Source: Elainellaceae cyanobacterium
Lineage (GTDB): Bacteria > Cyanobacteriota > Cyanobacteriia > CAZCXK01
DNA: 63,002 nucleotides
Assembly: GCA_051117555.1 (NCBI GenBank)
Contig: JBNPEG010000028.1
Coordinates: 1-63,002, forward strand
Direction of reading: 5' to 3'
The notes beneath the pieces are model-generated. The model worked only from the letters and a program-made list of their open reading frames with translations, had not been told where the DNA came from and did no database searches. A program made the position numbers and the translations under genes. Position 1 is the stretch's first letter, and each line of letters starts with the position of its first letter. Shown piece by piece: positions 1,441 to 49,711 of this stretch.

Positions 1441-4400
1441 ATGCTAGACACCGTCATCCAAACCCTAGAGCGTCAGCAGCGCCCCTACTACTTGCCCCAA
1501 GGCAACCCTATCAAAGGGGTTGATAAGCAGTATTGGCTCATCTTTCGCCATCGCGACCTCGATAAGCCCGGCAGCCTGCTGAGCGGCATTGCGTCTTTAT
1601 TGGGCTTCAAAGAAACCAACAAGCCCCCTAGCCACCGCATCCTGCGGATCGACCTCGACAGCGCCAAAGTCTACTCCTACATTCCCCGACAGGATGGCGA
1701 CATCCCTACCACTGCTCTGCTGCGCACCGCCATTCCCACAGTCATCGAGCGCTTCCTGAAGTTAGAGGGCAGCCGCAAAGAATCCGCCCTGCTAGAAGGC
1801 AGTTTTCGAGAAGTACGGGGCATCAAGCGCCGCTACAGCCTGCCGGAAAATATCGCCCCCTACGACAAGGTAATTAGCCAACTGCTAGAACGCAGCGTCA
1901 CCTATCGCCGCTCTACCGCCTACTTCGACAGCGGGGTACTGAAGCTCTACGAAGAACCCCTGCAAAAAATCATCCAGACCGATGGTCGCATTCGCCTGCT
2001 GATGGACTGGCAGGGCTTCACCAAACGGGCCGATATTGCCGAGCTAGAGCGCCTGCACGACCCGGACTATCGCGCCCAGTTTGCCCAGCGCACCCTGCAA
2101 GAATTCCTGCAAGGGTTGGATGAAGCCGCTTTTACCAGTACCCAGGTGCTGGCCGAGCTGGTGCGGTTGGAGTTCCTGCAAATTCGCCTCGTGAAAATGC
2201 AGCAAGGCCGCGCCATTTATCACAAGAAGACGGGCATCTTCAGCGATCGCATGGAAAACCATGTGCAGCACGAAGGGTCTGATAACTTCACCCGTGCCGC
2301 CCACTCCCGCAATGCCGAAAGCGTCACCTTCCTGTTCTCCTGGGACAAGCTCGACCGGGAAGCGATCGCTGAGAGCATCCAGGAATTCGATGCCGAATGG
2401 GAACGGGAAGACCTTACCTTTGACCTCAGCCAAGAGTTTCTGCATCAGGTGTTAGAGGAGCGCGATCGCCGTGCCAAACTCAAGCAGCCCACCATCGACA
2501 CCATCACCCCTGACACCCTGCCCCCCGGCGAGACCACCAAAGTCACCGTCACCGGCGACAACCTGGACCAGGTCAATGACATCCAGGTCGAGGGGGACGA
2601 TTTGGTCGAGGTTGAGGTGAAAAAGAAGACCCCAAAAGAACTGAAGGCCGACGTCACCGTCTCCCCCGATCATCCCCCTCGCGATGTCGGCGATTTTATC
2701 GTCAGCACCACCACGGGCACCTACACCGTGCCCCCCGCCAAAACGCCCCAGGTGCCCCCAGCAGAACCCCTGCCGGAGTACGCCGAGATTGAAGGCTTTA
2801 AGCAGGCGATCGAGCTGATTCAGTCCGGGCTACACGGCATCCCCAACGACTTCCTCTACTGGTGCGCCCAGCAACGTCGCCGTCAGTTCCGGGTGGAGTC
2901 AAGCGACCTGCTAGACCAGCTCGTCAACGAAGGCATCCTGTTTGAACACCAAAAATCGGGTGCTCAGCACTGCCTGCGGGTCATGGAAGACTTTGGCGTC
3001 GCGGTCTGTGCCGATGCTGTCGGTCTGGGCAAAACCCGTCTCGCCGCCGCCGTCACCCGCCTCTATCACCAAAGCGAAGGACAGGCCAAAGTCGCCATCA
3101 TCGCCGCCCGTAAACTGCATCCCAACTGGGTACGCGAAATGGCCGAACTCGGTTTCCGCAACAACGAGTATGAGCTGTACAACAAGAACCTGATGAGCCG
3201 CAAAGGCAACGGCTTTGTGGACGACTTCAACCGCTACGGTGGCCCCGATCTGGTAATCATCGACGAGGCCCATGAAGGCATTCGCAATTATAAGAACCGC
3301 ATCCACAAGATGTGTCTGCAAATCCGTGAGCAGGATCGACAGAACAACCGCCAGCGTCATTTCCTGCTACTAACCGCCACCCCTTGGAACAACCGCCGCG
3401 AAGACATCTACAACATCCTCTCCCCGTTCATCACCCGTCCCGAAGGCTTCACCGAACTCAACTTTCCGCCTGAAGTTGCCCAATGGTTCCAGTCCCGCGA
3501 GGGCGGTGTCGAGAGCTTCACCGACGACGACAAGTGGTTCCGCCGCACCTACCGCGAACTGTTCCTTCAGCGCACCCGCCAAATGCTGCGGGAGGCCATG
3601 CCCAACCTGGCCGTCTATGCCAAGCGTCAGGCCGAATGGCTCCCCGTCGAGTTTGAGGACGCCACTGAGCAGGCCCTAGAGCAAATCTTTACCCAGTTTG
3701 AAACCCAGCTCTACATTCCCTTTGCTGACCCTGTGCGCTACCTGCGCGGCGATGAAGAACAGCGATCGCTGCTGCAAAACCAGCGTCGCTTCTTCTTGCA
3801 ACGGGCCGAGTCCAGCATGTACGCTCTAAAGCGTACCATTGAGAACTTCCGAGGCCGCATTTTGCAAATGCAGGAGCGGCTCTCGAAGGTGGAACCCACT
3901 GCCGATGGGTTGCAAGCCTTCCTGTTTGAACACTACGGCTTCTTGACTGAGGAACCAGAGCAGGGCGACCTGTTCGATTTCAGTGATCGCGAAGCCTGGG
4001 ATGATGACTGGATGGAACCGGAAGAGGACGAAGACGAAGAGTCGGATGCGGACAAGGAAGCCAAACGTCAGCAGCTCCGCCGCACCATTGAGCTAGCGGT
4101 TGAACGTCTTCAGGGCAACCCCACTGAAGCCCGTCGCGTCTATGACCATATGTGGTCCGCCTGCGATTGTGACTTAATGCAGCTCAATGAGATTCAAAGC
4201 CTGCTGGCAGAAGAATTCGTTAAAGATCATAAGCGGGAGAAGGTCACTACCCAGGTACAGGAACTGGTCGCCCAAGGCCATAAGGTGCTGCTGATTTCCA
4301 CCTTCTCTGACACCGTCATCGACTATTACCGCTACATGGGGCAAGATCCCATCATTCAGCAAAAAGGTATTGGTATGGCGACGGGTTCCACCAAAGCTTA

Positions 4401-5697
4401 CTTCCCCGCCGATAGCGACAGCTACGTGCGCGTCTTGCCCCACAACCTGCTGCGGGGCAAGCAAGAACTGAAGGGGCTAAAACGCCAGCAGCTATTCCGG
4501 CTGTTTGCGCCGGTGGCTACCTGCCGGGAGGAGAGCGATCGCCCCCGTCCGGAAGAAGAAATCAGCGTCCTTATCGGGTCAGAAACCGTCTCCGTTGGGC
4601 AAAACCTTCAGGATGCCGACTACCTCATCAACATCGACTTGCCCTGGAACCCCATGATTCTAGAGCAGCGCATTGGCCGCATCGACCGTCCCAAGCAGCG
4701 CCCCGTCGAATACATCCACATCTACTACGCCAATAGCCAGAGCCAACTGCTCCGCCAAGCCAGCCGTCTCAAAAACCTCAACAAAAAGCTGGTCGGGGAC
4801 GACCTAGTCAAAGATGATCAGAACATCGACCGCCTTACCGACATCAGCAAGCTCGGTGCTTCTATTTACGGTGATACTCTATTCGATGACACCATCCTGC
4901 CGGGATACATCGAGTTCCTCGACACCCTCACCAAAGCCCGCCGTATGGAGCAAGAGAGCTTTCAGGAGAAGGTCTATCAGCAGCAGGAAACCTGCCAAGA
5001 CCTCTACTCTCAACAAGAACTGCTCTTTACCGAAGACATCAGCCAGCGACTCAAAGAAATGGGGGACGATTACCTACCCAACCCTATTGCCCTCGGCTCG
5101 CGCACCAACGACGACCAAGATCCTGCCAGCCTAGCCGCTCTCACCATCGAATACTTTGGCCCCAACGGTGAAACCATCCCCAGCCGTCAGGAGCAAGTCT
5201 TTTGGAACGACCAAACCGGAGAAAGGGATGGCTTCGGCATGGCGATCGCCACAGCGTTCAGGACTCCCAAAATCCTATCGGTTCTACCGACCAGCAAGTT
5301 GCTAATCCATACCGATGGTCTCTACCGGCAGCTTGTTGCCCTCAAGAACCAGCTATCCAGTCAGCTAGAGGGTGAGGAAACCCTGGAAAACGTGACCATT
5401 ACCTCATCTCGACTAAACCGGATTCAGCAGCGTATCAGTACGCTCGACAAGTTGCCAGATGGCCTAGAGCCAAAGGTAGTAAGGGGCATCCTCAAGAAGC
5501 TCAATTCCTGGAAGAACCTGAAAGCCGTTCAAAAACTTCTGCGAAACTATACAGACGGAACCAATGCGGATTTGGAAGACGTGGTATTTGTTCAACAACT
5601 TGTTACGGACGCAGATGCTTTAAGCCTCTTAGGCTCCGAGGAAATCAAGGCTGTTAACCTACGGGTGGAATTGTCGGCACTGCTCCTGAGAACGTAA
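1441..5697 (+). CDS. PLD-like nuclease + Ig-like (IPT/TIG) insert + SNF2-type SF2 helicase
   Basis: HKKTGIFSD...GSDN (HKD motif); ADAVGLGKT Walker A; DEAH; LLLTATPWNN; GQNLQDADYLINIDLPWNPMILEQRIGRIDR (motifs V-VI). Confidence 0.85.
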   Translation: MLDTVIQTLERQQRPYYLPQGNPIKGVDKQYWLIFRHRDLDKPGSLLSGIASLLGFKETNKPPSHRILRIDLDSAKVYSYIPRQDGDIPTTALLRTAIPTVIERFLKLEGSRKESALLEGSFREVRGIKRRYSLPENIAPYDKVISQLLERSVTYRRSTAYFDSGVLKLYEEPLQKIIQTDGRIRLLMDWQGFTKRADIAELERLHDPDYRAQFAQRTLQEFLQGLDEAAFTSTQVLAELVRLEFLQIRLVKMQQGRAIYHKKTGIFSDRMENHVQHEGSDNFTRAAHSRNAESVTFLFSWDKLDREAIAESIQEFDAEWEREDLTFDLSQEFLHQVLEERDRRAKLKQPTIDTITPDTLPPGETTKVTVTGDNLDQVNDIQVEGDDLVEVEVKKKTPKELKADVTVSPDHPPRDVGDFIVSTTTGTYTVPPAKTPQVPPAEPLPEYAEIEGFKQAIELIQSGLHGIPNDFLYWCAQQRRRQFRVESSDLLDQLVNEGILFEHQKSGAQHCLRVMEDFGVAVCADAVGLGKTRLAAAVTRLYHQSEGQAKVAIIAARKLHPNWVREMAELGFRNNEYELYNKNLMSRKGNGFVDDFNRYGGPDLVIIDEAHEGIRNYKNRIHKMCLQIREQDRQNNRQRHFLLLTATPWNNRREDIYNILSPFITRPEGFTELNFPPEVAQWFQSREGGVESFTDDDKWFRRTYRELFLQRTRQMLREAMPNLAVYAKRQAEWLPVEFEDATEQALEQIFTQFETQLYIPFADPVRYLRGDEEQRSLLQNQRRFFLQRAESSMYALKRTIENFRGRILQMQERLSKVEPTADGLQAFLFEHYGFLTEEPEQGDLFDFSDREAWDDDWMEPEEDEDEESDADKEAKRQQLRRTIELAVERLQGNPTEARRVYDHMWSACDCDLMQLNEIQSLLAEEFVKDHKREKVTTQVQELVAQGHKVLLISTFSDTVIDYYRYMGQDPIIQQKGIGMATGSTKAYFPADSDSYVRVLPHNLLRGKQELKGLKRQQLFRLFAPVATCREESDRPRPEEEISVLIGSETVSVGQNLQDADYLINIDLPWNPMILEQRIGRIDRPKQRPVEYIHIYYANSQSQLLRQASRLKNLNKKLVGDDLVKDDQNIDRLTDISKLGASIYGDTLFDDTILPGYIEFLDTLTKARRMEQESFQEKVYQQQETCQDLYSQQELLFTEDISQRLKEMGDDYLPNPIALGSRTNDDQDPASLAALTIEYFGPNGETIPSRQEQVFWNDQTGERDGFGMAIATAFRTPKILSVLPTSKLLIHTDGLYRQLVALKNQLSSQLEGEETLENVTITSSRLNRIQQRISTLDKLPDGLEPKVVRGILKKLNSWKNLKAVQKLLRNYTDGTNADLEDVVFVQQLVTDADALSLLGSEEIKAVNLRVELSALLLRT

Positions 5698-8048: not shown

Positions 8049-8960
8049 ATGCTGACGCATTCTCAATCTGAATCTGAATCAACGTGGCGCGCTATTGTAA
8101 GGCTTTTGCGCTGGCATAAGCCAACTGGACGACTCATTTTGATGGTGCCTGCCCTCTGGGCCGTATTTCTTGGCGCACATAGTGTCAACCCGGGCGAGTT
8201 GCCCCCCTTGCTACTTGTGTTAGTCATTATTTTAGGGAGTTTAGCCACAAGCGCAGCCGGGTGCGTAATCAATGACCTCTGGGATCGGGACATTGATCCA
8301 AATGTAGAGCGAACGCGCGATCGCCCCCTTGCATCTCGCCGTTTGACAGTCAGAACGGGGATTGGCGTTTTAATGGTTGCCTCTGCCTGCGCGGCAGGGT
8401 TGGCGTTTTATCTGCTATCAACTTCAAATGCGCTGACGTTTTGGCTATGCGTTGCAGCCGTGCCAATCATCGTGCTATATCCGCTGGCAAAACGAGTCTT
8501 TCCCATACCGCAGCTCGTATTATCGATTGCCTGGGGGTTTACCGTCCTCATTAGCTGGACAGCCGTTACGCAGAGCCTCAACTTCCCAATCTGGTTACTC
8601 TGGGGAGCAACCGTCTCATGGACACTCGGATTTGACACGGTATATGCCATGTCTGACCGAGAAGACGATCGCAAGCTCGGCGTAAATTCCAGCGCCCTCT
8701 TTTTTGGAGACAATGCTTCCGAAGCCGTTGGAGCCTTTTTTGCTGGGACAGCATTCTTGCTAGCCAGCATCGGGGTTGCCCTCAGCCTCAACGCTTGGTT
8801 TTGGGTGTCGTGGCTGGTGGCGATCGCCGGTTGGGTTTGGCATTATGCTGAGCTGCGCCCGCGTCATCCTCATCCATCAGTCTATGGACGGATATTCGGC
8901 CAAAACGTCTGGATTGGGTTCATTCTCCTACTCGGAATGATGTTAGGTGCTGTGATGTGA
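8049..8960 (+). CDS. ubiA: 4-hydroxybenzoate solanesyltransferase (UbiA family)
   Basis: NDLWDRDIDPNVERTRDRPLAS and DTVYAMSDREDD Asp-rich motifs; multiple TM helices; ATG 8049 chosen as start. Confidence 0.92.
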   Translation: MLTHSQSESESTWRAIVRLLRWHKPTGRLILMVPALWAVFLGAHSVNPGELPPLLLVLVIILGSLATSAAGCVINDLWDRDIDPNVERTRDRPLASRRLTVRTGIGVLMVASACAAGLAFYLLSTSNALTFWLCVAAVPIIVLYPLAKRVFPIPQLVLSIAWGFTVLISWTAVTQSLNFPIWLLWGATVSWTLGFDTVYAMSDREDDRKLGVNSSALFFGDNASEAVGAFFAGTAFLLASIGVALSLNAWFWVSWLVAIAGWVWHYAELRPRHPHPSVYGRIFGQNVWIGFILLLGMMLGAVM

Positions 8961-10907
8961 ATGGCACGCACCATTTTTATGAGCCGACGGAGGCACATCT
9001 AGGGCAGGATTTTGGTTAAAGAAACCAACGGGTTTGAGCATAAAGCTCGCATAAGAAACAGGCATGACAGGCCAGTCCTCGGGACGTGGAATATGATGTT
9101 GCCCGAAGGTATACCATACAACGACATCCGTGTTTTCAATGGAGCGGTTGGCTTGGGTCCATTTGGGTAGCCCGTCTCCCCCTGGATGCTGGTTGGGATA
9201 GTCACCTGCCGGATATTTTTCATCCGAGCTGTATGGAGTTGCCCAAACGTTTTTCGTGATGAAGGTTGCTCGCTTCGTAACGCTGGCTTCAGGATGGGCA
9301 AAAGAGAGGACAGTATCGCCGGGGATGAGCTTATACCCCACCGGATTTCCGACGCTGTTAAGTTTTGACGGGTTTATGACCTTCCAATAGCGCCCCTTAA
9401 ATGGGTCAATGGTGCGCTGAGCTTCTTGCTCGGTCGCTAGCAGCGTTGACTTGGCAACACACGCATTGCCGTGAGGATTCTCAGGCCCTAGAGGCAACGG
9501 TTCAGTATTGACTTCATAAATAGAGTTGGTTTGCCCATCAACGGCCATATCCATCCGCACGTTGAAGAAGTGTTGATGAATGTGTCCGACTAATTGAGGC
9601 GCTAATAATTCGCCGTGCTGAGGCGTCTCACCGGGGGCGATCGCCGATGTATTCACAATTCCAGTGAGCTTAACCTCAAACTGAATCGTACCGTCTTGGT
9701 AGAAATACCAGTAAAACCCGTACTCGTAGTTGCCTACCGTGGCAATAAATGAGACAACGAGGCGCCGCGATCGCCTGACCTCTGTATGCTCAGTCCGCCA
9801 ATCCATATGCTTCCAAAGAATGCCGAAGTCTTCTTCATGCATACAGATAGCGTTCTCAATGGTGGCAACGTCTCCCTGACTATTAGACAAAAAGGCGTCA
9901 AAATACCGAATCTCACCCAAACAATCACAGCCCAGTTTCAAGGAATTTGCCAACATGCCGATACCATACTCGCCGACATCGAAGGCATTTTTTCGGTAGT
10001 GATTTGAGTCGGGCACACCCGGATCGTTGTATGGCACCACCATTTCTGCCAGCGACGCCCGATAGATAATAGAACGAATGCGCCCTTGATCTTCATAGCC
10101 GACGTCATAAAGCACCAGCCCCTCGCGAGGCGTGAATCCAATGCGGAAGTGCCATTTTTGCCAATAGACCTTATACCCTTCAACGTGAAAACTCGGCCCC
10201 TCTGGCTGAATGATGTCTAAGGGTTTCAAATCAGTTCGAAATTGGGGAATGTAGTCGCTGGCATAGTTCCCTGGCTCAGGGGGTAAAGGCACAATTCCAT
10301 AGTCTTCAACCTTGATAACGGTCATGGTGTTGAGGTCAACCACGGGCACGACGCCCTCGATGGGTCGGGCGTAGCCGTTATCATTGGGTTCTGACCGAAT
10401 CCAGCAAAATGCCCGTGAGAGCCTTAGTCCCTTCTCATTTTCGAGACCAAAGTTACCGGCTGACCACGGGTCGACCATGACTAAATCAAAGTCAGTGATA
10501 CCGCGCTTTTTTAGAGCCTGTTGAAAGTCAGGATTGGCTTTAACGGCTGCTTCGCATTCTAAAAATTCATCGAGCATGATTGACGGCTGCACGTCTGGGA
10601 TATGAGTCCAAGACATGATTCGCTGTTCGGGAATCGAGGCGATCGCCTCGTATGTGTTTCCTGTAGCGTTATCGAGCAAGATTACAAATGCTTCTCGATT
10701 GATGGAATCACCTGGCTTAAATGCGCGAATCACCGATTTAGGAGGTTCATGAAGAACCACAGTGGCAAACCGAACGCGATCGCCAAATTGGGGATGAGCT
10801 GACACGATCGCAACAGTTGCCGCAATTTCCTCAGGTGAAAGTGGATCAAGCGGATGTTGCCCCACGATAGTCTGACTCAAATGGTCGGGTAGCGGCGTGG
10901 TCGTCAT
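8943..10907 (-). CDS. tynA: Copper/topaquinone primary amine oxidase
   Basis: HPLDPLS N-terminus; TVGNYEY (TPQ precursor Tyr); HQH and HHIPRPEDWPVMP copper ligands; no signal peptide from ATG 10907. Confidence 0.92.
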   Translation of the reverse strand: MTTTPLPDHLSQTIVGQHPLDPLSPEEIAATVAIVSAHPQFGDRVRFATVVLHEPPKSVIRAFKPGDSINREAFVILLDNATGNTYEAIASIPEQRIMSWTHIPDVQPSIMLDEFLECEAAVKANPDFQQALKKRGITDFDLVMVDPWSAGNFGLENEKGLRLSRAFCWIRSEPNDNGYARPIEGVVPVVDLNTMTVIKVEDYGIVPLPPEPGNYASDYIPQFRTDLKPLDIIQPEGPSFHVEGYKVYWQKWHFRIGFTPREGLVLYDVGYEDQGRIRSIIYRASLAEMVVPYNDPGVPDSNHYRKNAFDVGEYGIGMLANSLKLGCDCLGEIRYFDAFLSNSQGDVATIENAICMHEEDFGILWKHMDWRTEHTEVRRSRRLVVSFIATVGNYEYGFYWYFYQDGTIQFEVKLTGIVNTSAIAPGETPQHGELLAPQLVGHIHQHFFNVRMDMAVDGQTNSIYEVNTEPLPLGPENPHGNACVAKSTLLATEQEAQRTIDPFKGRYWKVINPSKLNSVGNPVGYKLIPGDTVLSFAHPEASVTKRATFITKNVWATPYSSDEKYPAGDYPNQHPGGDGLPKWTQANRSIENTDVVVWYTFGQHHIPRPEDWPVMPVSYASFMLKPVGFFNQNPALDVPPSAHKNGACHSHHST

Positions 10908-10996
10908 GGTCGTTCTCTCAATCAAAATAACGAGCAAAATAACGAGGACTATCAATAAACCGCAGCGCACGATGGCATAACGGCATGACTCTGACT

Positions 10997-11038
10997 ACGC
11001 TAATGTGCTTGTTGCTCAGTGTTTGTGTGACACGATAC
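10997..11038 (-). promoter_or_regulatory. Putative NtcA-activated promoter of the amine oxidase
   Basis: Minus strand GTATCGTGTCACAC (GTA-N8-CAC, 11038-11025), 22-nt spacer, then TAGCGT (TAN3T, 11002-10997). Confidence 0.6.
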
Positions 11039-22196: not shown

Positions 22197-22458
22197 AGCT
22201 ACATTGCTTATTTCGTGTCGCCCGGTGACTCATAAAACGTTATAAGATACACAATCTAAGATGCCTGCACTTGTTATAACGAGTTGAGACGTTCCACGTT
22301 TCTAGAGCATGTTGGTTGGGGGAGTGGCCGGCATCTAAGAACTAGATACTCATTACGCTAGATGAGTGGTCTGTCCATTCCCCTCTATCTCTCTAGAATT
22401 GTGTCGTCTTTAGTCTGTGTCGATTCATTGTTCAACTTAATCCATTGGGAGTCTAGCT

Positions 22459-23406
22459 TTGTGCGGCATTGCAGGAGTCATTTACCGTAATCCAGCCGAT
22501 TATCAGCATCTCGGCTCAGATTTGTTCTCGCTAATTCATCCCCTAGAAAGTCGAGGCCCTGACTCAAGTGGCATTGCTCTCTATGGTCGAGACGTTAATC
22601 CTGATCAACTTAAGATGATGCTTCACGGAAACGGGCAGTGGTCTAGCTTAACGCAGTGGTTGAGTCAGTATGCTCAATCATGCGTCTCCGAACCATTAGC
22701 CGAAGGGCAACGCATCGTCCTTGAGTTGGCAGACGGAGTGACCTTCGACCTCGGGGCATTCAAACACCAGCTTCGCCAGCATTTCCCTGATATTCACTTT
22801 ATGAGCATTGGTCAGAAGCTGGAAGTTTATAAGGGAATCAGCGGTGTCGAAGCATTGATGGTTCAGGATGACCTGAGGTCATTCGCGGGCAGTCATGGAA
22901 TTGCTCATACTCGCATGGCAACTGAGTCTGTTGTTGATTTAGACCACTGCCATCCGTTTACAGCAAGTTATGACCTTTCCATCGTTCATAATGGTCAAAT
23001 CTCAAATTACTATCGACTCCGATTTCAGCTAGAGCGAGCCGGGATCATGTTTGAAACTGACAATGACTCAGAAGCGATCGCCCATTATATTCACTATCAG
23101 TTGCTTCAGGGCAAATCGTTAGAAGACGCCCTGGAAAAGTTCTTGAACGACGTAGACGGCACGTTTACCTTCCTGGTGGCAACCCCCGATAAAGTAGGAC
23201 TCGTCCGTGATAAGTTTGCTGCAAAACCTGCGGTCATTTACGAAACCGACCATATGATGGCGATCGCCTCCGAATACCGAGCGTTAATGGCACTAAATCG
23301 GTTTGATAAGAACGCCAGCATTCGCGAACCCGATGCTGGAGAGATCAATGTTTGGTCGGTGTCAGCTAATCAGCGCGAACTCCAACTTTCAAACAGCAGG
23401 AGTTAG
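22459..23406 (+). CDS. glxB: Class II glutamine amidotransferase, GlxB/MgsA-like (N-methylglutamate synthase subunit A)
   Basis: N-terminal CGIAG (Ntn Cys), RGPDSSG, HTRMATES, HPF, HNGQISN, DSE. Confidence 0.8.
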   Translation: MCGIAGVIYRNPADYQHLGSDLFSLIHPLESRGPDSSGIALYGRDVNPDQLKMMLHGNGQWSSLTQWLSQYAQSCVSEPLAEGQRIVLELADGVTFDLGAFKHQLRQHFPDIHFMSIGQKLEVYKGISGVEALMVQDDLRSFAGSHGIAHTRMATESVVDLDHCHPFTASYDLSIVHNGQISNYYRLRFQLERAGIMFETDNDSEAIAHYIHYQLLQGKSLEDALEKFLNDVDGTFTFLVATPDKVGLVRDKFAAKPAVIYETDHMMAIASEYRALMALNRFDKNASIREPDAGEINVWSVSANQRELQLSNSRS

Positions 23407-23409
23407 TCT

Positions 23410-24123
23410 ATGGCAGACCTTATGCTTTCAAAAACAGTCGTTGACTGTTCTGAGTTGACGACTCGTCAAATTAATCAGCAGTTAAAAGCACTGGCTGCTG
23501 AAGGAATTAAGTTTGTCGATCTGATTAATCCTGCTGGACAGCATAATCTAGCAGTTGGTTTAGAGTATCCTATTCATCTCACGTTCCAGGGTCCTGTTGG
23601 ATATTACTGTGGTGGCTTGAGTGATGGTCCAATCATCCATATTGATGGCATGTGTGGATGGTCATTAGGGGAAAACCTAATGTCAGGTCAAATTATCGTT
23701 CACGGCAACGCATCGGCCAATGCAGCCGCATCGGCACATGGTGGCAAAATCTGCATCTTAGGAAATGCAGGTCCTCGCACCGCGATTTCTCTCAAGGGAG
23801 CAACCGTTGTCGTCAAAGGCAATGTTGGGCACAGCAGCGCATTCATGATGCAGCAGGGCCGGTTGATTATCTGCGGTGATAGTGGTTCAAATCTGGGCGA
23901 TTCCATTTATGATGGCGAAATTTTTGTTGGCGGAGTAGTCAGTTCATTAGGCGCTGATGCTCGGTATGAGCCAATGAGTAAGGCAGATTGGCAAATGCTT
24001 CATCAAGAACTCAGCCCATTTGGAATGAGTGCCCATGAGTATGACTTTAAGAAAATTGTCTGCGCTCAAGAGCTTTATCACTTCAAAGCGAAGGATTTTA
24101 GCAAATGGAAAGACGCTTACTAG
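23410..24123 (+). CDS. glxC: GXGXG beta-helix protein, GlxC/MgsB-like
   Basis: GPVGYYCGG, GENLMSG, NAAASAHGG, GDSIYDG. Confidence 0.82.
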   Translation: MADLMLSKTVVDCSELTTRQINQQLKALAAEGIKFVDLINPAGQHNLAVGLEYPIHLTFQGPVGYYCGGLSDGPIIHIDGMCGWSLGENLMSGQIIVHGNASANAAASAHGGKICILGNAGPRTAISLKGATVVVKGNVGHSSAFMMQQGRLIICGDSGSNLGDSIYDGEIFVGGVVSSLGADARYEPMSKADWQMLHQELSPFGMSAHEYDFKKIVCAQELYHFKAKDFSKWKDAY

Positions 24124-24304
24124 CGGCGTTTCCAAACCATTTTATTGGGCTGGTGATGGACAGCTAAGAGCCTTAAACAACATGGGTTACGCTGCGACCT
24201 ATCCTACAACTGCTGAGTGCTAATCGCTAAATAGCAAGGATCGCGATCGCCACCCTTACCTTCTGACCCCCAATCCTAACCCGTCAACGTTACCCTCTCT
24301 CCCT

Positions 24305-25615
24305 ATGGAAAATCGCACACTCAACACCAGCAATACTTTTACTCCTGATGTCATTCAAGCGATTCAGGAGAGAGCTAACCTCGGGCGCTACATGATTCGC
24401 GGATTTGGTGCCTTTCGCAATGTCCCCCGGTTTGATGATTTAGTATTTCTGACCGCATCCTTAACTCGCTTTCCCCTCGAAGGATACCGGGAGAAATGCA
24501 ATACTACAACCTATCTTGGAACGCGGTATGCAAAACGCCCGATCGAATTGGACATTCCCATCACGATCGCCGGAATGAGTTTTGGGGCACTCTCCCGCAA
24601 TGCAAAGATTGCTCTAGGTCGTGCCGCTACGTGGTTAGGAACATCGACCACCACAGGCGACGGTGGCATGCTCGATGACGAGCGAGTCGCCTCTCAGAAG
24701 CTAGTTTATCAGTGTCTGCCATCTCGCTATGGGTTTAATCCGAATGATGTAAAACGGGCTGATGCAATTGAGATTGTCGTTGGGCAAGGCGCAAAACCCG
24801 GCGGGGGCGGTCTATTGCTCGGACAAAAAGTCAACAAAGTTGTCGCCGGAATGCGGACCCTGCCCGAAGGAGTTGACCAGCGATCGCCCTCTCGCCACCC
24901 CGACTGGATTGGTCCTGACGATCTCCGCATCAAAATTGAAGAACTGCGAGAAGCGACCAACTGGGAAATCCCTATTTACATTAAAATGGGAGCCACTCGG
25001 GTTAAAGACGATGTAAAGCTAGCTGTTAAAGCAGGTGCTGATGTAATTGTTTTAGACGGAATGGAAGGGGGAACCGCTGCAACCCAGAGCATTTTTCAAG
25101 AACATTCTGGTATTCCAACCCTTCCCGCTGTCGTACAAGCCGTGGATGCGCTCAAAGAAATTGGAGTATATGGCGAGGTTCAACTTGTTATTTCGGGCGG
25201 AATCCGCTCCGGTCCAGATGTTGCCAAAGCCATCGCACTCGGCGCTGATGCAGTTAGTATTGGCACAGCTAGTCTGATTGCAATGGGCTGCAACAAGCCT
25301 ATTTATGTTGAAGACTATCACACGCTTGGGACTGAGCCATATCATTGCCATCACTGTCACACAGGCCGCTGTCCAGTAGGCATCGCAACTCAAGATGATG
25401 AGTTAATGGAGCGACTGCCTATCGAAGAAGCAGCCACGCAAGTCGCTAATTATATTCAGGCAATGGTGATGGAGGCACAAAGCCTGGCCCGAGCCTGCGG
25501 CAATTCTGATGTGCATAATCTCGAAAAGCAAGACCTAGTGGCGCTCACGCTCGAAGCATCCGCAATGGCACGAGTGCCTCTAGCTGGAACTGATTTTATT
25601 ATGGGGCAATCTTGA
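24305..25615 (+). CDS. glxD: FMN-binding glutamate synthase-like subunit, GlxD/MgsC-like
   Basis: PRFDDLVFL..RFPLEGYREKC, IPITIAGMSFGALS, GQGAKPGGGG, CHHCHTGRCPVGIATQD. Confidence 0.85.
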   Translation: MENRTLNTSNTFTPDVIQAIQERANLGRYMIRGFGAFRNVPRFDDLVFLTASLTRFPLEGYREKCNTTTYLGTRYAKRPIELDIPITIAGMSFGALSRNAKIALGRAATWLGTSTTTGDGGMLDDERVASQKLVYQCLPSRYGFNPNDVKRADAIEIVVGQGAKPGGGGLLLGQKVNKVVAGMRTLPEGVDQRSPSRHPDWIGPDDLRIKIEELREATNWEIPIYIKMGATRVKDDVKLAVKAGADVIVLDGMEGGTAATQSIFQEHSGIPTLPAVVQAVDALKEIGVYGEVQLVISGGIRSGPDVAKAIALGADAVSIGTASLIAMGCNKPIYVEDYHTLGTEPYHCHHCHTGRCPVGIATQDDELMERLPIEEAATQVANYIQAMVMEAQSLARACGNSDVHNLEKQDLVALTLEASAMARVPLAGTDFIMGQS

Positions 25616-44658: not shown

Positions 44659-46170
44659 CTAGACGAGCGCAGGTTCCTGCTCCTTGCCGCGAACAGTTTC
44701 AGCCGCTCTGGCTTCGCGGAACAGATGATTTGCCCATTGCTGCACGTCGTACCGCTTAATCGCCTGATACATCCGGCTCATCCGCTGCTGCTTTTCTTCT
44801 GGAGACATAGAGAGTGCTAGGTCGATTGACTCATCCATCCGGGTTGACGAATACGGATTTGTCAAAATTGCATCGGGCAGCTCGACCGCAGACCCTGTGA
44901 ATTCCGAAAGAACCAGCATGCCATCCTTGCCCTCATGAGCGCAGACATATTCTTTCGCAACCAGATTCAAACCATCACGTAATGGCGTAATCCAAGCAAT
45001 ATCTGATGCCTTAAAGAAGGCGATCAACTCTTCAAAGGGGATAGGCTGCGTAAAGAGAATAATGGGAGTCCAGTTTAGCTTCGCAAAGCGACCATTAATC
45101 TTACCGACTAGCTGCTCAATTTGACTTTGAGCTGTTTTATACACGCGCATTCCAGATGCAGGCGTGACAGCCGTCGTTAGCATGTTGATTTTGCCATGTA
45201 GATCCGGACGACGCTCTAGCAATCGCTCATATGCCCAGAGCATTTCCCTTGCACCTTTGACGTAATCCACACGTCCAGCAGACACGATCAAGATATTGTC
45301 ACCCACGTCTTCCCGAATTCGAGCAACCCGCTGTTCTGTTTCTGGCTTTTGAATGATCGTGCGAATCAAATCTGGATTAGTGCCCACAGGAAACGCGTCG
45401 AGATTGACGATTCTTCCCTTATGACGAACCTGAGTTGTGAGCTCTGGCTCAGCAAGGGCCGTGCCGGTTGGAGTAAAGGCAGGATCGACTGGAACGCGAG
45501 TAACAATCTCTACTTCCCTATTGCTCCGCGCAGCCGCAACGAAGTTTTCAACATATCGAGGAATATGGAATCCACAAAGATCACAGCACAAAAGACTATC
45601 AATGATGTGCTCTCGCCAAGGCAAAATATTGAAAATATCAGATGACGGAAATGGAGTGTGATGGAAAAAGGCAATTTTTACATTGGGCATGCGCTGCCGA
45701 ATGTAGTAAGGCGTCAGCCACAAATTATAGTCGTGAATCCAGATGAGGGCGTCATCTGCGGCATCCTCACACGCCGCATCTGCGAAGAGCTTATTGATAT
45801 GTTGAAAATTTTCCCAATCGGAAGAATCGTAAGTAAACTGCCAAGGAAATGAGTGCAAAATGGGCCAAAAAGCTTCCTTAGACGTGATGTGGTAGAAGTT
45901 TTTAACCTGCTCAGCAGATAAAGGAATCCGACGAACGCCGGTGCTTCCTTTAGTTCCTTCCATCGTAATCCGCTCTTCAAAACCAGCCTGCTGCTTCGGA
46001 GAAATTTGCTTCCAAGCAACCCATGTCCCATGTTCAGCATTGGTGAAAAAGCTCTTTAAGGTCGGAACGATCCCATTAGGGCTTTTCTTTTCACGGTAAT
46101 AAACTTTGCCGTTCTCCTTTACCTCATCATAAGGTTCCCGATGGTACAAGATAACCAAAGAAGATTTCAT
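44659..46170 (-). CDS. ggpS: Glucosylglycerol-phosphate synthase (GT20)
   Basis: MKSSLVILYHREPY, SPNGIVPTL, WIHDYNLW, RVDYVKG, RDGLNLVAKE; adjacent to gpsA and gghA. Confidence 0.93.
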   Translation of the reverse strand: MKSSLVILYHREPYDEVKENGKVYYREKKSPNGIVPTLKSFFTNAEHGTWVAWKQISPKQQAGFEERITMEGTKGSTGVRRIPLSAEQVKNFYHITSKEAFWPILHSFPWQFTYDSSDWENFQHINKLFADAACEDAADDALIWIHDYNLWLTPYYIRQRMPNVKIAFFHHTPFPSSDIFNILPWREHIIDSLLCCDLCGFHIPRYVENFVAAARSNREVEIVTRVPVDPAFTPTGTALAEPELTTQVRHKGRIVNLDAFPVGTNPDLIRTIIQKPETEQRVARIREDVGDNILIVSAGRVDYVKGAREMLWAYERLLERRPDLHGKINMLTTAVTPASGMRVYKTAQSQIEQLVGKINGRFAKLNWTPIILFTQPIPFEELIAFFKASDIAWITPLRDGLNLVAKEYVCAHEGKDGMLVLSEFTGSAVELPDAILTNPYSSTRMDESIDLALSMSPEEKQQRMSRMYQAIKRYDVQQWANHLFREARAAETVRGKEQEPALV

Positions 46171-47140
46171 TAGGTTGCCTCCTGACGCGTTTCATCAATT
46201 CTTGAAAATTGTTCAGCATGACGTGAACATGCATCACAATCAATGTAAAGTTAAACCTGCAATGCAAAGCTCGCAACTGGAATCAACATTCTAGGCTCAT
46301 TAAGATAATCTGCCATTAACATATCGATTCATCACATTATCATTATTAATAAAGTTGCAAACCCAACATATCCAATCGCTAGAAACATTAGTACTCAGAT
46401 ATGAGGCTCAGAAATAACTTAAATAAACTTCACTTAAATAAACTTCACCCAAATCGACGGACTCGGAAAGACCCTATGCCTCACAGAGCCTTAGTCCCGA
46501 AGCTATCCAAGCCAGGCTCGTAACCCACAGATACGGTGCTAAATTATGCAAGTCTTAGCCTCTAAAATAACTAAGCTCAATCCAATGCGATCGCTTCTCA
46601 AACCCAGCAATTAAAACCACTAAAATCTGTACGCCAAATACATAAATTTAATCTCTCAAAAACTCGCTAAATCTGCGACTTATTGCAAATACTCTACAAA
46701 ATTAAGCGACTTTCAGGACTATTTCCATAAAGAAATCTGGTCAATATTAAAGATGTTTCTACCAAGGAATAGACTCGAAAAGCCCACAGGGCAAACATCC
46801 TACATGACTTCGATGACTCAAATTCATCATATCCTTGCATAACTATACCACAACTTAACATTTTCTAAAAGTTAGGTGTTGTAATAGAGATTACCTCAAG
46901 AATTTAGAATTTTGCTGCAGACTAAACCTGTCTAGCAAATTACTAATAGGGACTTCATGGCGGGGATTACCAACAAATTTCATCGAAATTAATTCGTGAC
47001 AATCGCCCTTTCAAACGAGCTTGCTATTGCATTGATTGCTATTTATTTAGATGAACAATAATTTGAAAAATTGCGTCAGACCCTGTGGATTTGAGAGGGT
47101 GCTGCGCTAAATTGGAAAGGCTGTTAACGCAGGCGGTGTC

Positions 47141-49711
47141 GTGAATACAGTGGAATCTTTATCTTCGAGTGTCTTGGCTGAGAAGGAAACTCAGGCGCTG
47201 TTGGGATGGGCAGCTACTATCACGGATTCGGACGAAACATATTTCTCAAAAGCTCAACAGCTTGCTCGTAAATTAGGAGCTCATTATCGTCCGGATGGCT
47301 TAACTGAAATTGGATTCTGGACACCTGAATTGGCAGGTGAAGTGATCCAATCTGAGCGAATGATTTACTTGGAAGTGTTTACTCCATTAGATCCTATTGA
47401 TTTTCGAGCCTCAGCGCAAACGCTGAATTTTCGGTGCGATCGCCTATCGTTACCCCAACAAGGTGAGTATATCTGGGGCGTAGTTTCCGGTATGAAAGCG
47501 GGTACTCGCAATCAGGCGGGATCGTTCTATTGGCTGAAATATCTTGATCCCCAAGGTCATCTTCATACCATTCGAGATGTTGTTCCATACTCGCTTCCCT
47601 ATGGCGTGTTTGCTCCAGCAGAACTCTATGATATCGATCGGCTACAGCACGAGCGGGCCGATCTAGACTATTTCCGTCGTACAGGGAGTCCGTCTGATTC
47701 TGAAGACGAAATCCCTAGATGTCCAACCCCAGTCAATTTGTTGCAAATTCATATCAGTACAGCCTCAAAACCGGGGACGCTCGAAGGTTTGACCCAGCTT
47801 TATCAAGAAATTTCTGACAAATTAGCATCGGGGCGATCGCTCACACCTGCCGAAGAAAACTATGTAGGCTACGACGGCATTCAACTTTTACCGATCGAGC
47901 CCACGATTGAATATCGTCATGAAACCGATAATTCAGAGCATGAATTTTTTGCAATTCATCCGCTTGTTCAATCTGATCAAGTATCTGAGGTCTCCGAAAC
48001 ACCTGAGATTTCTAATGCGCCTAAAGCAGATGCCTCAACCGATCCTGATCTAAATGCAAGCTATACGGTCGACATTACTCTCCGTAAACCCAATACCCTC
48101 AATTGGGGATACGACATTCCTATCTTGGGATCGTCTGCGACTAATCCAGCAATTTTGGGCAGCTTACGCCCCGATGAACTGATCGATTTTGTAGCAGTCC
48201 TGCATAATTTTTCGCAAGGTCCGATTCAAGTCATCTACGACCTTGTGTATGGTCATGCAGATAATCAATCTGAACAACTGCTCAGCCGCCAGTTTTTGAA
48301 GGGGCCTAATATGTATGGGCAAGATTTGAACCATCAGCTACCTGCGGTGCGTGCAAATTTGCTTGAGATGCAGCGCCGAAAACTCGATACGGGGGCAGAT
48401 GGCATCCGGGTTGATGGAGGACAAGATTTTCGATTCTTTAACCCAATTTCTGGGCGAGTCGAGCAAGACGATGCGTATTTGCTGGCGATGAGTGATGTCG
48501 TTCAAGAAATTGATGGCCACCGGCGATTGGTGTTCACCATTTTTGAGGATGGACGCCCGTGGCCCCAAGAAGGGTGGGAAGAAACCTCTACATATCGAGA
48601 CTTAATTGAGCTGAAGCCTGACTCGTTTCAATGGGGACCGCTTATTTTTGCCCATAACACTCCAGCCCTCGAAAAATTCTGGGATCAAAAATGGAGACGA
48701 GTCAGCGAGGTTATGATCCAGGGAAGTAACTGGATTACCGGCTGTGCGAATCATGATACGGTAAGGCGCGGTAACCAAATTGATCCAAATGGTCCAATCA
48801 ATTGGAATCTAGGTAAAACTCATCCAGAGGTATTAAATAACGCGTACGATAATCCGGCAGTAAAACTTTGGGTCTATGGATTTAGCCCTGGCCTGCCAAT
48901 GGACTTCATCAATGCGCTTATGCACGCTTCCTGGGGGTTCTTCAGAAATACCGATGAGCGATACGGCGTTAAAGTTGCGTCAGAGGAGATTGGCTTCCTT
49001 GACTGGCAAGTCGAACCTGAGCTGTATGAGAAGTCATGGGTATTCAGCCGCCTCAAGGCACTTGGGTTCTCAGATTATGATTTTTTGAGGGGATTTGTGG
49101 GCGCTCTGAGACTCGCCATGATGCAGACAGATTATGACTTAGAGGCCGTTGCAGTCGTTTGTCAAAATTGTTTGGGCGATAACTTGGAATATTGTGAACT
49201 CCCGTCCTTAATGGAATTAAATCATCCTGAAAAGAAAATTCCATTTCTCAATAATCTAGATGTGCCGTCTCTGAAAAAGTTTGCGATGGCATTTATGGAA
49301 GATATGCATGATTTGAGTAATGTATCTCATTATGTCGATCAGGTTAACCCTCTGCAGACTCGCTTTAGTTTCGATCTTCGGCAGTTTCGTTTGAACCATC
49401 CCTGGTTGAGAGAAAACTTAACTGGGAGCGATCGCTTTAATCGAGTCAGCAACGATCACCACACCTTGTTTTATGGGTTAAGAAGTCAACCCACTCACGA
49501 ATCGTCGCAACCGGCAGCACAACTGGCAATGGTGACTCATATGGGAGGTGATCCGGCCAAGGTGACGCTAGCCGACTGGCTCCAGCTTGATGTGAATGAG
49601 TGGCAGGTGGCGATCGCCACGCCGGGTTTAGAGATGCATGATAGTGCGTTTGACCTGCGTATGTTCGAGCTTAAGGATAGCCAAGGACTATTGCTTACGA
49701 AAAAGCAGTGA
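47141..49711 (+). CDS. gghA: Glucosylglycerol hydrolase (GH13-like, Slr1670 family)
   Basis: LGAHYRPDGLTEIGFWTP, DLVYGHAD, GIRVDGGQD, FEDGRPWP, NHDT; divergent from ggpS. Confidence 0.88.
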   Translation: MNTVESLSSSVLAEKETQALLGWAATITDSDETYFSKAQQLARKLGAHYRPDGLTEIGFWTPELAGEVIQSERMIYLEVFTPLDPIDFRASAQTLNFRCDRLSLPQQGEYIWGVVSGMKAGTRNQAGSFYWLKYLDPQGHLHTIRDVVPYSLPYGVFAPAELYDIDRLQHERADLDYFRRTGSPSDSEDEIPRCPTPVNLLQIHISTASKPGTLEGLTQLYQEISDKLASGRSLTPAEENYVGYDGIQLLPIEPTIEYRHETDNSEHEFFAIHPLVQSDQVSEVSETPEISNAPKADASTDPDLNASYTVDITLRKPNTLNWGYDIPILGSSATNPAILGSLRPDELIDFVAVLHNFSQGPIQVIYDLVYGHADNQSEQLLSRQFLKGPNMYGQDLNHQLPAVRANLLEMQRRKLDTGADGIRVDGGQDFRFFNPISGRVEQDDAYLLAMSDVVQEIDGHRRLVFTIFEDGRPWPQEGWEETSTYRDLIELKPDSFQWGPLIFAHNTPALEKFWDQKWRRVSEVMIQGSNWITGCANHDTVRRGNQIDPNGPINWNLGKTHPEVLNNAYDNPAVKLWVYGFSPGLPMDFINALMHASWGFFRNTDERYGVKVASEEIGFLDWQVEPELYEKSWVFSRLKALGFSDYDFLRGFVGALRLAMMQTDYDLEAVAVVCQNCLGDNLEYCELPSLMELNHPEKKIPFLNNLDVPSLKKFAMAFMEDMHDLSNVSHYVDQVNPLQTRFSFDLRQFRLNHPWLRENLTGSDRFNRVSNDHHTLFYGLRSQPTHESSQPAAQLAMVTHMGGDPAKVTLADWLQLDVNEWQVAIATPGLEMHDSAFDLRMFELKDSQGLLLTKKQ

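Follow-up and report, generated by a model that had tools for sequence, protein, structure and literature searches.

An MgsABC orthologue and a scattered, predicted methylamine pathway in an Elainellaceae cyanobacterium

Can a cyanobacterium draw nitrogen directly from methylamine? The question is raised by three genes at positions 22,459 to 25,615 of contig JBNPEG010000028.1 of an Elainellaceae cyanobacterium (assembly GCA_051117555.1), analyzed here over its whole stretch of 63,002 nucleotides, which we call the window. The N-methylglutamate pathway is established in Proteobacteria (PMC5023228, PMC3160333) and has been proposed in Mycobacterium (PMC5023230). Diatoms are described as unable to use methylamine nitrogen (PMC7574528) and Trichodesmium as being without 12 of 14 pathway genes (10.1101/2021.03.10.434842), and both sources have methylamine nitrogen reach phototrophs via heterotrophs. 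The original prediction, made from the letters alone, read the three genes as GlxBCD/MgsABC, the N-methylglutamate synthase, rather than ferredoxin-dependent glutamate synthase (GOGAT), and suggested that the strain may use methylamine as a nitrogen source. It also took model cyanobacteria to turn methylammonium into gamma-glutamylmethylamide via glutamine synthetase and largely to accumulate it; a review that we consulted mentions, for its part, only a trapping of methylamine uptake linked to this enzyme. Our analysis makes it probable that the three genes encode an MgsABC orthologue that takes the central step in a methylamine pathway that is complete, scattered over the genome, and predicted to be switched on by NtcA under nitrogen shortage and released by a GntR/UTRA repressor. 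The host likely draws nitrogen from methylamine, a substrate that we infer from sequence comparison. A complete pathway with predicted regulation in cultured cyanobacteria makes direct methylamine use by phototrophs testable.

The three genes and their place in the MgsC tree

The locus comprises the following genes:
22459-23406, + strand: mgsA/glxB, class II (Ntn) amidotransferase; TTG start, 315 amino acids (aa), N-terminal Cys, HTRMATES
23410-24123, + strand: mgsB/glxC, GXGXG beta-helix subunit; 237 aa, Pfam GXGXG
24305-25615, + strand: mgsC/glxD, subunit binding flavin mononucleotide (FMN); 436 aa, predicted iron-sulfur (Fe-S) ligands, without N-terminal ferredoxin domain

The three open reading frames (ORFs) are co-oriented and stop-free in the predicted order (Ntn amidotransferase, GXGXG protein, FMN subunit), and their Pfam domains confirm the assignment: GATase_6 with 69 bits (cut-off 27), GXGXG with 63 (32.5) and Glu_synthase with 322 (20.4). 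None of the three ORFs reached the cut-off of an NCBIfam model, the gltB model PRK11750 scoring 150 of the 1047 bits needed. All motifs quoted in the original prediction were found in their genes: MgsA has Cys2 after the initiator and HTRMATES at residues 150-157 (22906-22929), and PRFDDL (residues 41-46) and RFPLEGYREKC (residues 55-65) were confirmed in the window. The mgsA and mgsB genes are 3 bp apart, mgsB and mgsC 181 bp. The latter gap contained no terminator-like site on the + strand in a scan; terminator and sigma-70 scans performed at chance level. Neither this gap nor the 262-bp leader matched Rfam at E values up to 0.1.

The locus is flanked by zwf-opcA-DUF937 on one side and a pilin gene on the other. 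Since the same flanks occur in two related genomes (L044 and L045), the locus is not a contaminant or a misassembly; together with codon use (19th-87th percentile) and HIP1 content that are ordinary for the host genome, this led us to reject recent transfer as well. The host genome (G000) is 100% complete by markers and 0.36% contaminated, and it is cyanobacterial: NtcA scores above its cut-off, psaA/psaB-like ORFs were recognized from sequence on contig C75, and the closest named relatives in a species-level scan (98%) are labelled Elainellaceae.

Compared with the subunits encoded on plasmid pAMI6 of Paracoccus aminophilus, whose cluster is named mgsABC-gmaS (PMC4543880), MgsA, MgsB and MgsC are 37, 40 and 64% identical, and for each of these reference subunits the window gene is the top match in the host genome. 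MgsA is 37-38% identical to its counterparts from P. aminophilus pAMI6, Rhizobium etli and Acidithiobacillus, and MgsB 40-44% to reference MgsB. Plasmid-borne MgsC homologues are bimodal: among 60 records spread over 522, 28 rows show 62-67% identity and the others at most 36.5%. A PDB search returned no solved MgsC relative, its top matches being GltB (E 1e-30). HTRMATES, an MgsA marker derived from our own alignment and not from a paper, is shared by all the listed MgsA proteins, canonical as well as cyanobacterial, and a divergent marine trio has HVRMATES instead.

The phylogeny against split glutamate synthases, proposed as a test with the original prediction, placed MgsC with canonical MgsC. 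In a careful 51-row tree (LG+G4, long outgroup branches flagged), 11 cyanobacterial and 11 canonical MgsC were joined at 100/100, each group having a support of at least 100/99, and this branch was separate from Fer4- or Rieske-bearing split GltB-like representatives. The outgroups nearer to MgsC were obtained by searching representatives of 50% clusters, and several of the split GltB-like ones carry Fer4, Rieske or rubredoxin domains. A quick tree of 76 rows, from which four duplicates and 21 of the 29 near-identical loci L083-L111 were removed, agreed, with 31 cyanobacterial rows forming one group (Shimodaira-Hasegawa-like approximate likelihood ratio 98). The 51-row tree, like the GmaS and Mgd/Sox trees below, was built on a hand-picked subset.

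These results bear on the idea that the genes encode an additional, glutamine-using glutamate synthase of the split kind, like archaeal-type GltB fragments. Such an enzyme would share the three Pfam domains of GltB and could retain the Fe-S cysteines seen here, and relatives of 40-50% identity exist among split GltB-like proteins. The tree, however, excludes it at 100/100, MgsC has no Fer4 domain, mgs genes strictly co-occur with gmaS, and the host already has a separate full-length GltB on C254. We therefore give a split GOGAT hardly any chance, and the comparisons support reading the three genes as mgsABC orthologues.

Further genes of the predicted pathway in the host and its relatives

As predicted, no gmaS or mgd is among the window ORFs. 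The suggested genome search found gmaS, mgd/sox-like genes and a second amt, all on other contigs:
C86:58933-60258: gmaS; TIGR03105 575 bits, cut-off 470
C75:22039-25221: mgdB-mgdC (soxD/soxA-like), by sequence similarity
C223:5005-5694: mgdD (soxG-like), by sequence similarity
C223:6679-7878: mgdA (soxB-like), by sequence similarity
C11:63255-64661: second amt; operator and NtcA box upstream

The suggested split of the pathway across the genome is thus what we found. The other option offered, entry via housekeeping glutamine synthetase (GS), was rejected as unneeded, because a dedicated GmaS orthologue exists. Its top PDB match was 7CQL (E 3e-151), which we take to be Rhodovulum GmaS, against 9QUR (7e-103) and GSI (7e-71). 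It groups with alphaproteobacterial GmaS (support 99), and the GmaS tree mirrors that of MgsC, a genome of the Gloeomargarita family branching first in both. Two GS-like genes of the host pass TIGR03105. The host genome also has two amt genes, folD, purU and a gene for glutathione-dependent formaldehyde dehydrogenase. With Rhizobium and Paracoccus queries, tblastn did not find dmmABC or tmm in it. A protein resembling trimethylamine N-oxide (TMAO) demethylase is encoded at C117:27691-29559 (L129); it is without about 150 N-terminal residues and scores 836 bits (cut-off 1100), and such a gene is linked to mgsABC in Leptolyngbya JSC-1.

All four Mgd subunits of the host are predicted as such by linkage, co-occurrence and the operator in relatives: gmaS-mgdB-mgdC-mgdD form a single run in G322 and G324, and the closest non-cyanobacterial beta subunits are located in mgs clusters. 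A reaction scheme for GmaS, MgsABC and Mgd has been published, with the redox cofactor of N-methylglutamate synthase stated to be unknown (PMC6237917). In the host, methylammonium would enter via the co-regulated Amt, and GmaS would convert methylamine, glutamate and ATP to gamma-glutamylmethylamide. MgsA would free methylamine from this amide, and MgsC would condense it with 2-oxoglutarate and reduce the product to N-methylglutamate, as in GS/GOGAT, with glutamate as the other product. MgdABCD would then take off the methyl group as methylene-tetrahydrofolate or formaldehyde, leaving glutamate and a net gain of one amino nitrogen. More speculatively, ferredoxin may be the electron donor of MgsABC, because the Fe-S cysteines are retained and there is no reductase subunit; the cyanobacterial enzyme offers a clean test of this donor.

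To see how far the genes extend beyond the host, we used an even set of 301 cyanobacterial genomes (host included) and a species-level mgsC scan, whose best 80 loci comprised 30 cyanobacterial (81-98% identity) and 50 other loci; the two samples overlap in G302 = G141 and G318 = G011 (identical coordinates). In the phylum sample mgsC was rare, being present in 6 of 301 genomes, among them all three of the host's order. The trait is not peculiar to the host strain, because the clade also has members, 81-98% identical, in the genomes of about 30 other cyanobacterial species. The carriers bear the labels Gloeomargaritaceae, Gloeobacterales, Thermosynechococcaceae, Oculatellaceae and Nostocales, a spread compatible with early presence and many later losses or with transfer between members of the phylum, and include the cultured Gloeocapsopsis crepidinum LEGE 06123, Oculatella sp. 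LEGE 06141, Leptolyngbya sp. JSC-1 and Iningainema tapete BLCC-T55. A gmaS orthologue, in some cases incomplete or fragmented, accompanies mgsC in 29 of 30 cyanobacteria, and the one genome without it, G311, has no mgsA either; gmaS adjoins mgsABC in 6 of 30 loci. In Pleurocapsales LEGE 10410 (L116), mgsABC-gmaS is followed by dmmABC-like (dimethylamine monooxygenase) genes, with the operator upstream. Orphan GmaS-like genes (L192-L207, in 16 of 301 genomes) form a clade closer to alphaproteobacterial GmaS, and the operator was beside the gene in none of six loci viewed. A second, compact mgs cluster of proteobacterial type occurs in G080, G231, G285 and on plasmid pA of Kovacikia minuta (L035); in the latter, mgdA is in two ORFs, the stretch contains no gmaS and mgsB is separated from mgsC by an unrelated ORF, so that this cluster is possibly decaying.

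The last step appears to have two solutions. Among the 30 mgs-bearing cyanobacteria, mgdC was found in 8 and a DAO-family flavoprotein in 22, with both in 2 and neither in 2 (Fisher p 0.001 for the exclusion, a value overstated by non-independent kin and many incomplete metagenome-assembled genomes). A soxB-type gene was present in 6 of the 30, and the DAO gene adjoins mgsABC in 8 of 30 loci and is divergent from gmaS in others. In the 301 genomes the soxB-type gene occurred only together with mgsC (5 of 6 genomes), the sixth being G011, the source of the DAO query; elsewhere in the class DAO had no match, and homologues of 31-35% identity were present in 9 genomes of other classes. By tblastn, no DAO orthologue was found in the host genome, the top match (25.5%) being its mgdA gene. 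We conclude that the host most likely finishes the pathway with MgdABCD. Since its relatives mostly carry either MgdABCD or DAO, the flavoprotein is the best candidate for the last enzyme of the other carriers, a role to which the host, having MgdABCD but no DAO gene, points by contrast.

Predicted regulation and competing explanations

Two predicted regulatory sites precede mgsA:
22239..22252, + strand: predicted NtcA-like box GTT-N8-CAC; differs from GTA-N8-TAC at two positions and retains GT-N10-AC
22271..22282, + strand: palindromic operator-like site TTGTTATAACGA, 1 mismatch to TTGTYATRACAA; predicted GntR/UTRA site

Class II NtcA promoters have GTA-N8-TAC at a spacing of 22 nt from TAN3T, and NtcA boxes mark nitrogen-scavenging genes (PMC3898017). 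The predicted box before mgsA lies 22 nt before TATAAC (22275-22280), and the palindrome overlaps this putative -10 element. GTA-N8-(T/C)AC is found at the same offset before mgsA in several relatives, and gmaS and amt of the host have perfect GTA-N8-TAC boxes. These NtcA-type boxes back the proposed use of methylamine as a nitrogen source. The palindrome (consensus TTGT(T/C)AT(A/G)ACAA) often lies beside an NtcA box and precedes mgsA, gmaS, amt and mgdC in the host. With at most one mismatch, TTGTYATRACAA is present in 23 of 30 cyanobacterial mgs loci and in none of the 50 others. Of 24 cyanobacterial mgsA loci, 20 have it no more than 250 bp ahead of the gene, and none has the reversed pattern there. 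Ahead of gmaS it occurs in 16 of 26 loci, in each of these with an NtcA box 2-4 nt upstream. Alone, it stands before mgdC in the host, G304, G306 and G307, and before mgdA in G322 and G304. The host genome has 9 exact palindromes against 0.94 expected, and the composite of NtcA box and palindrome occurs five times: at gmaS, amt, a duplicated third GS-like gene and a Rieske/sarcosine-oxidase pair.

As to the regulator, mgsA has a GntR/UTRA gene as its neighbor in 14 of 30 cyanobacterial loci. The top host match of all 14 is C225:19879-20628, which in the phylum sample occurs at 69% identity or more only in the three genomes with the host's mgs clade. NtcA activation and GntR/UTRA control of the mgs genes are thus predicted: under nitrogen shortage NtcA would activate transcription, and the GntR protein would block the promoter until an amine-derived effector binds.

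Several observations weigh against the reading set out above. The cyanobacterial MgsC clade is sister to the characterized one and not nested in it (100/100), so the substrate is extrapolated, and the reference mgsABC clusters are literature-annotated rather than purified enzymes. GmaS-like genes (about 50% identity) without mgsC in 16 of 301 genomes mean that gmaS alone is no pathway marker. The Mgd genes score below the sox family cut-offs, and the tree intermingles Mgd with Sox without clean separation. The NtcA box and the -10 element of mgsA are each off consensus, their spacing being that of class II. Two of the nine exact palindromes in the host belong to one duplicated stretch and two precede unrelated genes; no palindrome lies within 400 bp of mgdA, mgdB or mgdD; and in five other genomes exact and reversed sites stood at 8:2, 6:0, 2:4, 3:5 and 3:13, an excess in only two. 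The palindrome shares the GT-N4-AC spacing of the HutC operator consensus GTMTAKAC (PMC4494728), but its centre is AT and not TA. In the host it also precedes other amine genes, namely those for a second TIGR03105 enzyme with an acyl-CoA-dehydrogenase-family protein, the third GS-like gene, a PhyH/substrate-binding protein (SBP) site and the Rieske/sarcosine-oxidase pair, so that another amine, or a broader one, may act as inducer.

The last point leads to the main rival, the same chemistry with another or wider substrate: ethylamine, dimethylamine, another small amine, or several gamma-glutamylamides from three co-regulated GS-like enzymes. It would accommodate the operator before two other GS-like genes and, in relatives, before an amine oxidase gene, the single MgsC of the host, the sister position of its clade, and the 62-65% identity of one GS-like gene to the enzyme beside the divergent mgs-like trio of marine Acidimicrobiales. 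Moreover, a GMAS has been called promiscuous, taking ethylamine and bulkier amines (10.1101/2025.05.29.656799). On the other side, MgsA has the canonical HTRMATES and not the HVRMATES of that trio, the linked gmaS branches with its alphaproteobacterial counterparts (support 99), and the L116 cluster stands beside genes for dimethylamine monooxygenase, whose product is methylamine. We consider a different or wider substrate unlikely, with a chance that is small and still appreciable.

Alternatively, the pathway could mainly recycle or detoxify internal methylamine, or store nitrogen as methylated glutamates, without growth on external methylamine. The host does have betaine/dimethylglycine/sarcosine-type oxidation genes besides the TMAO-demethylase-like gene, and two of 30 relatives have neither terminal enzyme. 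Against this stand a terminal oxidase in the other 28, a dedicated host amt with NtcA box and operator, the operator before amt in three other genomes, and the nitrogen-scavenging role of genes marked by NtcA boxes (PMC3898017). A mainly internal role thus appears improbable.

A further competitor lies in the window itself:
8943..10970, - strand: copper primary-amine oxidase, likely start 10907; NF008559 1012 bits, cut-off 651
11025..11038, - strand: NtcA-like box GTA-N8-CAC with AAAC and a decayed operator behind it; lies ahead of the amine oxidase gene

If this oxidase mainly released methylamine nitrogen, MgsABC would be accessory. The enzyme is above its family cut-off, homologues occur in 21 of 30 mgs-bearing cyanobacteria, full NtcA box and operator precede the gene in 5 of 28 homologous loci, and in G325 it is directly behind gmaS. 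The solved structures closest to it, however, belong to phenylethylamine oxidases (E 1e-158, against 4e-126 for yeast methylamine oxidase), the operator is decayed in the host, and the gene was not found in 9 of the 30 genomes. Its leading role is accordingly very unlikely, and we regard the oxidase as a probable peripheral member of the regulon, outside the mgs operon.

Several neighborhoods around the operator deserve mention in their own right. The third GS-like gene, with NtcA box and operator, lies at C86:16534-21999 (L127) beside genes for an amino-acid binding protein, a PhyH dioxygenase and an iron-type alcohol dehydrogenase (Fe-ADH); this stretch is duplicated on C76, identical over about 6.7 kb, possibly by assembly. 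Its product is 62-65% identical to the GS-like head of the divergent mgsABC-like trio that lies by tdm and tmm in marine Acidimicrobiales, a trio that the host is without. At C66:4769-7753 (L130), the acyl-CoA-dehydrogenase-family gene and the second TIGR03105 enzyme lie behind the same operator, and the former adjoins mgsABC in L060 and L065. G253 has a GS paralogue in a cluster whose other genes match host C248:52062-59810, presumably a guanidine hydrolase with hypAB-like genes. Finally, C160:1408-8159 (L132) encodes Rieske oxygenase, dimethylglycine-dehydrogenase-like and monomeric sarcosine-oxidase-like proteins with NtcA box and operator between, a possible betaine branch of the regulon. 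Elsewhere in the window, 1441-5697 (+ strand), where the GC content is high (55-59%), encodes an SNF2-like helicase protein of 1418 aa with weak anti-phage family matches, all sub-cut-off, and at 44659-49711 a glucosylglycerol-phosphate synthase gene (TIGR02398 above cut-off) is divergent from an 856-aa ORF without NCBIfam match.

Comparison with known systems

The pathway as such is well known, and many cyanobacterial homologues are already auto-labelled as MgsC at JGI ('methylamine---glutamate N-methyltransferase subunit C'). In the open-access literature, supplements being outside the scope and a table entry conceivable there, we found no report of the pathway or of methylamine-nitrogen use in cyanobacteria.

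The window genes resemble MgsABC/GlxBCD (EC 2.1.1.21) of P. aminophilus pAMI6 (PMC4543880) and Methylobacterium extorquens DM4 (PMC6237917) in their three subunits, gene order, HTRMATES and common tree branch, but they form a cyanobacterial clade of their own, and gmaS and mgd are unlinked in the host. MgsC keeps Cys329 and C348-x2-C351-x4-C356, as does that of Acidithiobacillus, whereas these Fe-S cysteines are absent from the three alphaproteobacterial MgsC aligned. Proteobacterial mgs clusters have XRE/GlxA regulators alongside; here, NtcA and GntR/UTRA control is predicted. The C86 gene is like known GmaS (7CQL, a type III glutamate-ammonia ligase, and 9QUR, a glutamate-methylamine ligase), with TIGR03105 over cut-off; it differs in lying on a separate contig and in having two further co-regulated GS-like paralogues. 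All four subunit types of MgdABCD and heterotetrameric SoxBDAG are present in the host, but with sub-cut-off scores and split over two contigs in three places, and in most relatives a lone DAO-family flavoprotein is found instead.

GltB/GlsF and split archaeal-type GltB have homologous domains, and the amide-transfer and FMN chemistry is probably the same. The window MgsC is, however, only 27-30% identical to the host's own and to solved GltB, and the split forms, which carry Fer4, Rieske or rubredoxin domains, do not belong to the Mgs branch. The compact cyanobacterial cluster of Kovacikia minuta pA, G080, G231 and G285 comprises the same pathway genes as the host, arranged as XRE-mgdABCD-(gmaS)-mgsABC. 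The operator was not found in these four clusters, their MgsC is 66-68% identical to that of the host, and it is nested with Acidithiobacillus and Paraburkholderia. We read the compact cluster as an acquisition separate from the clade to which the host belongs.

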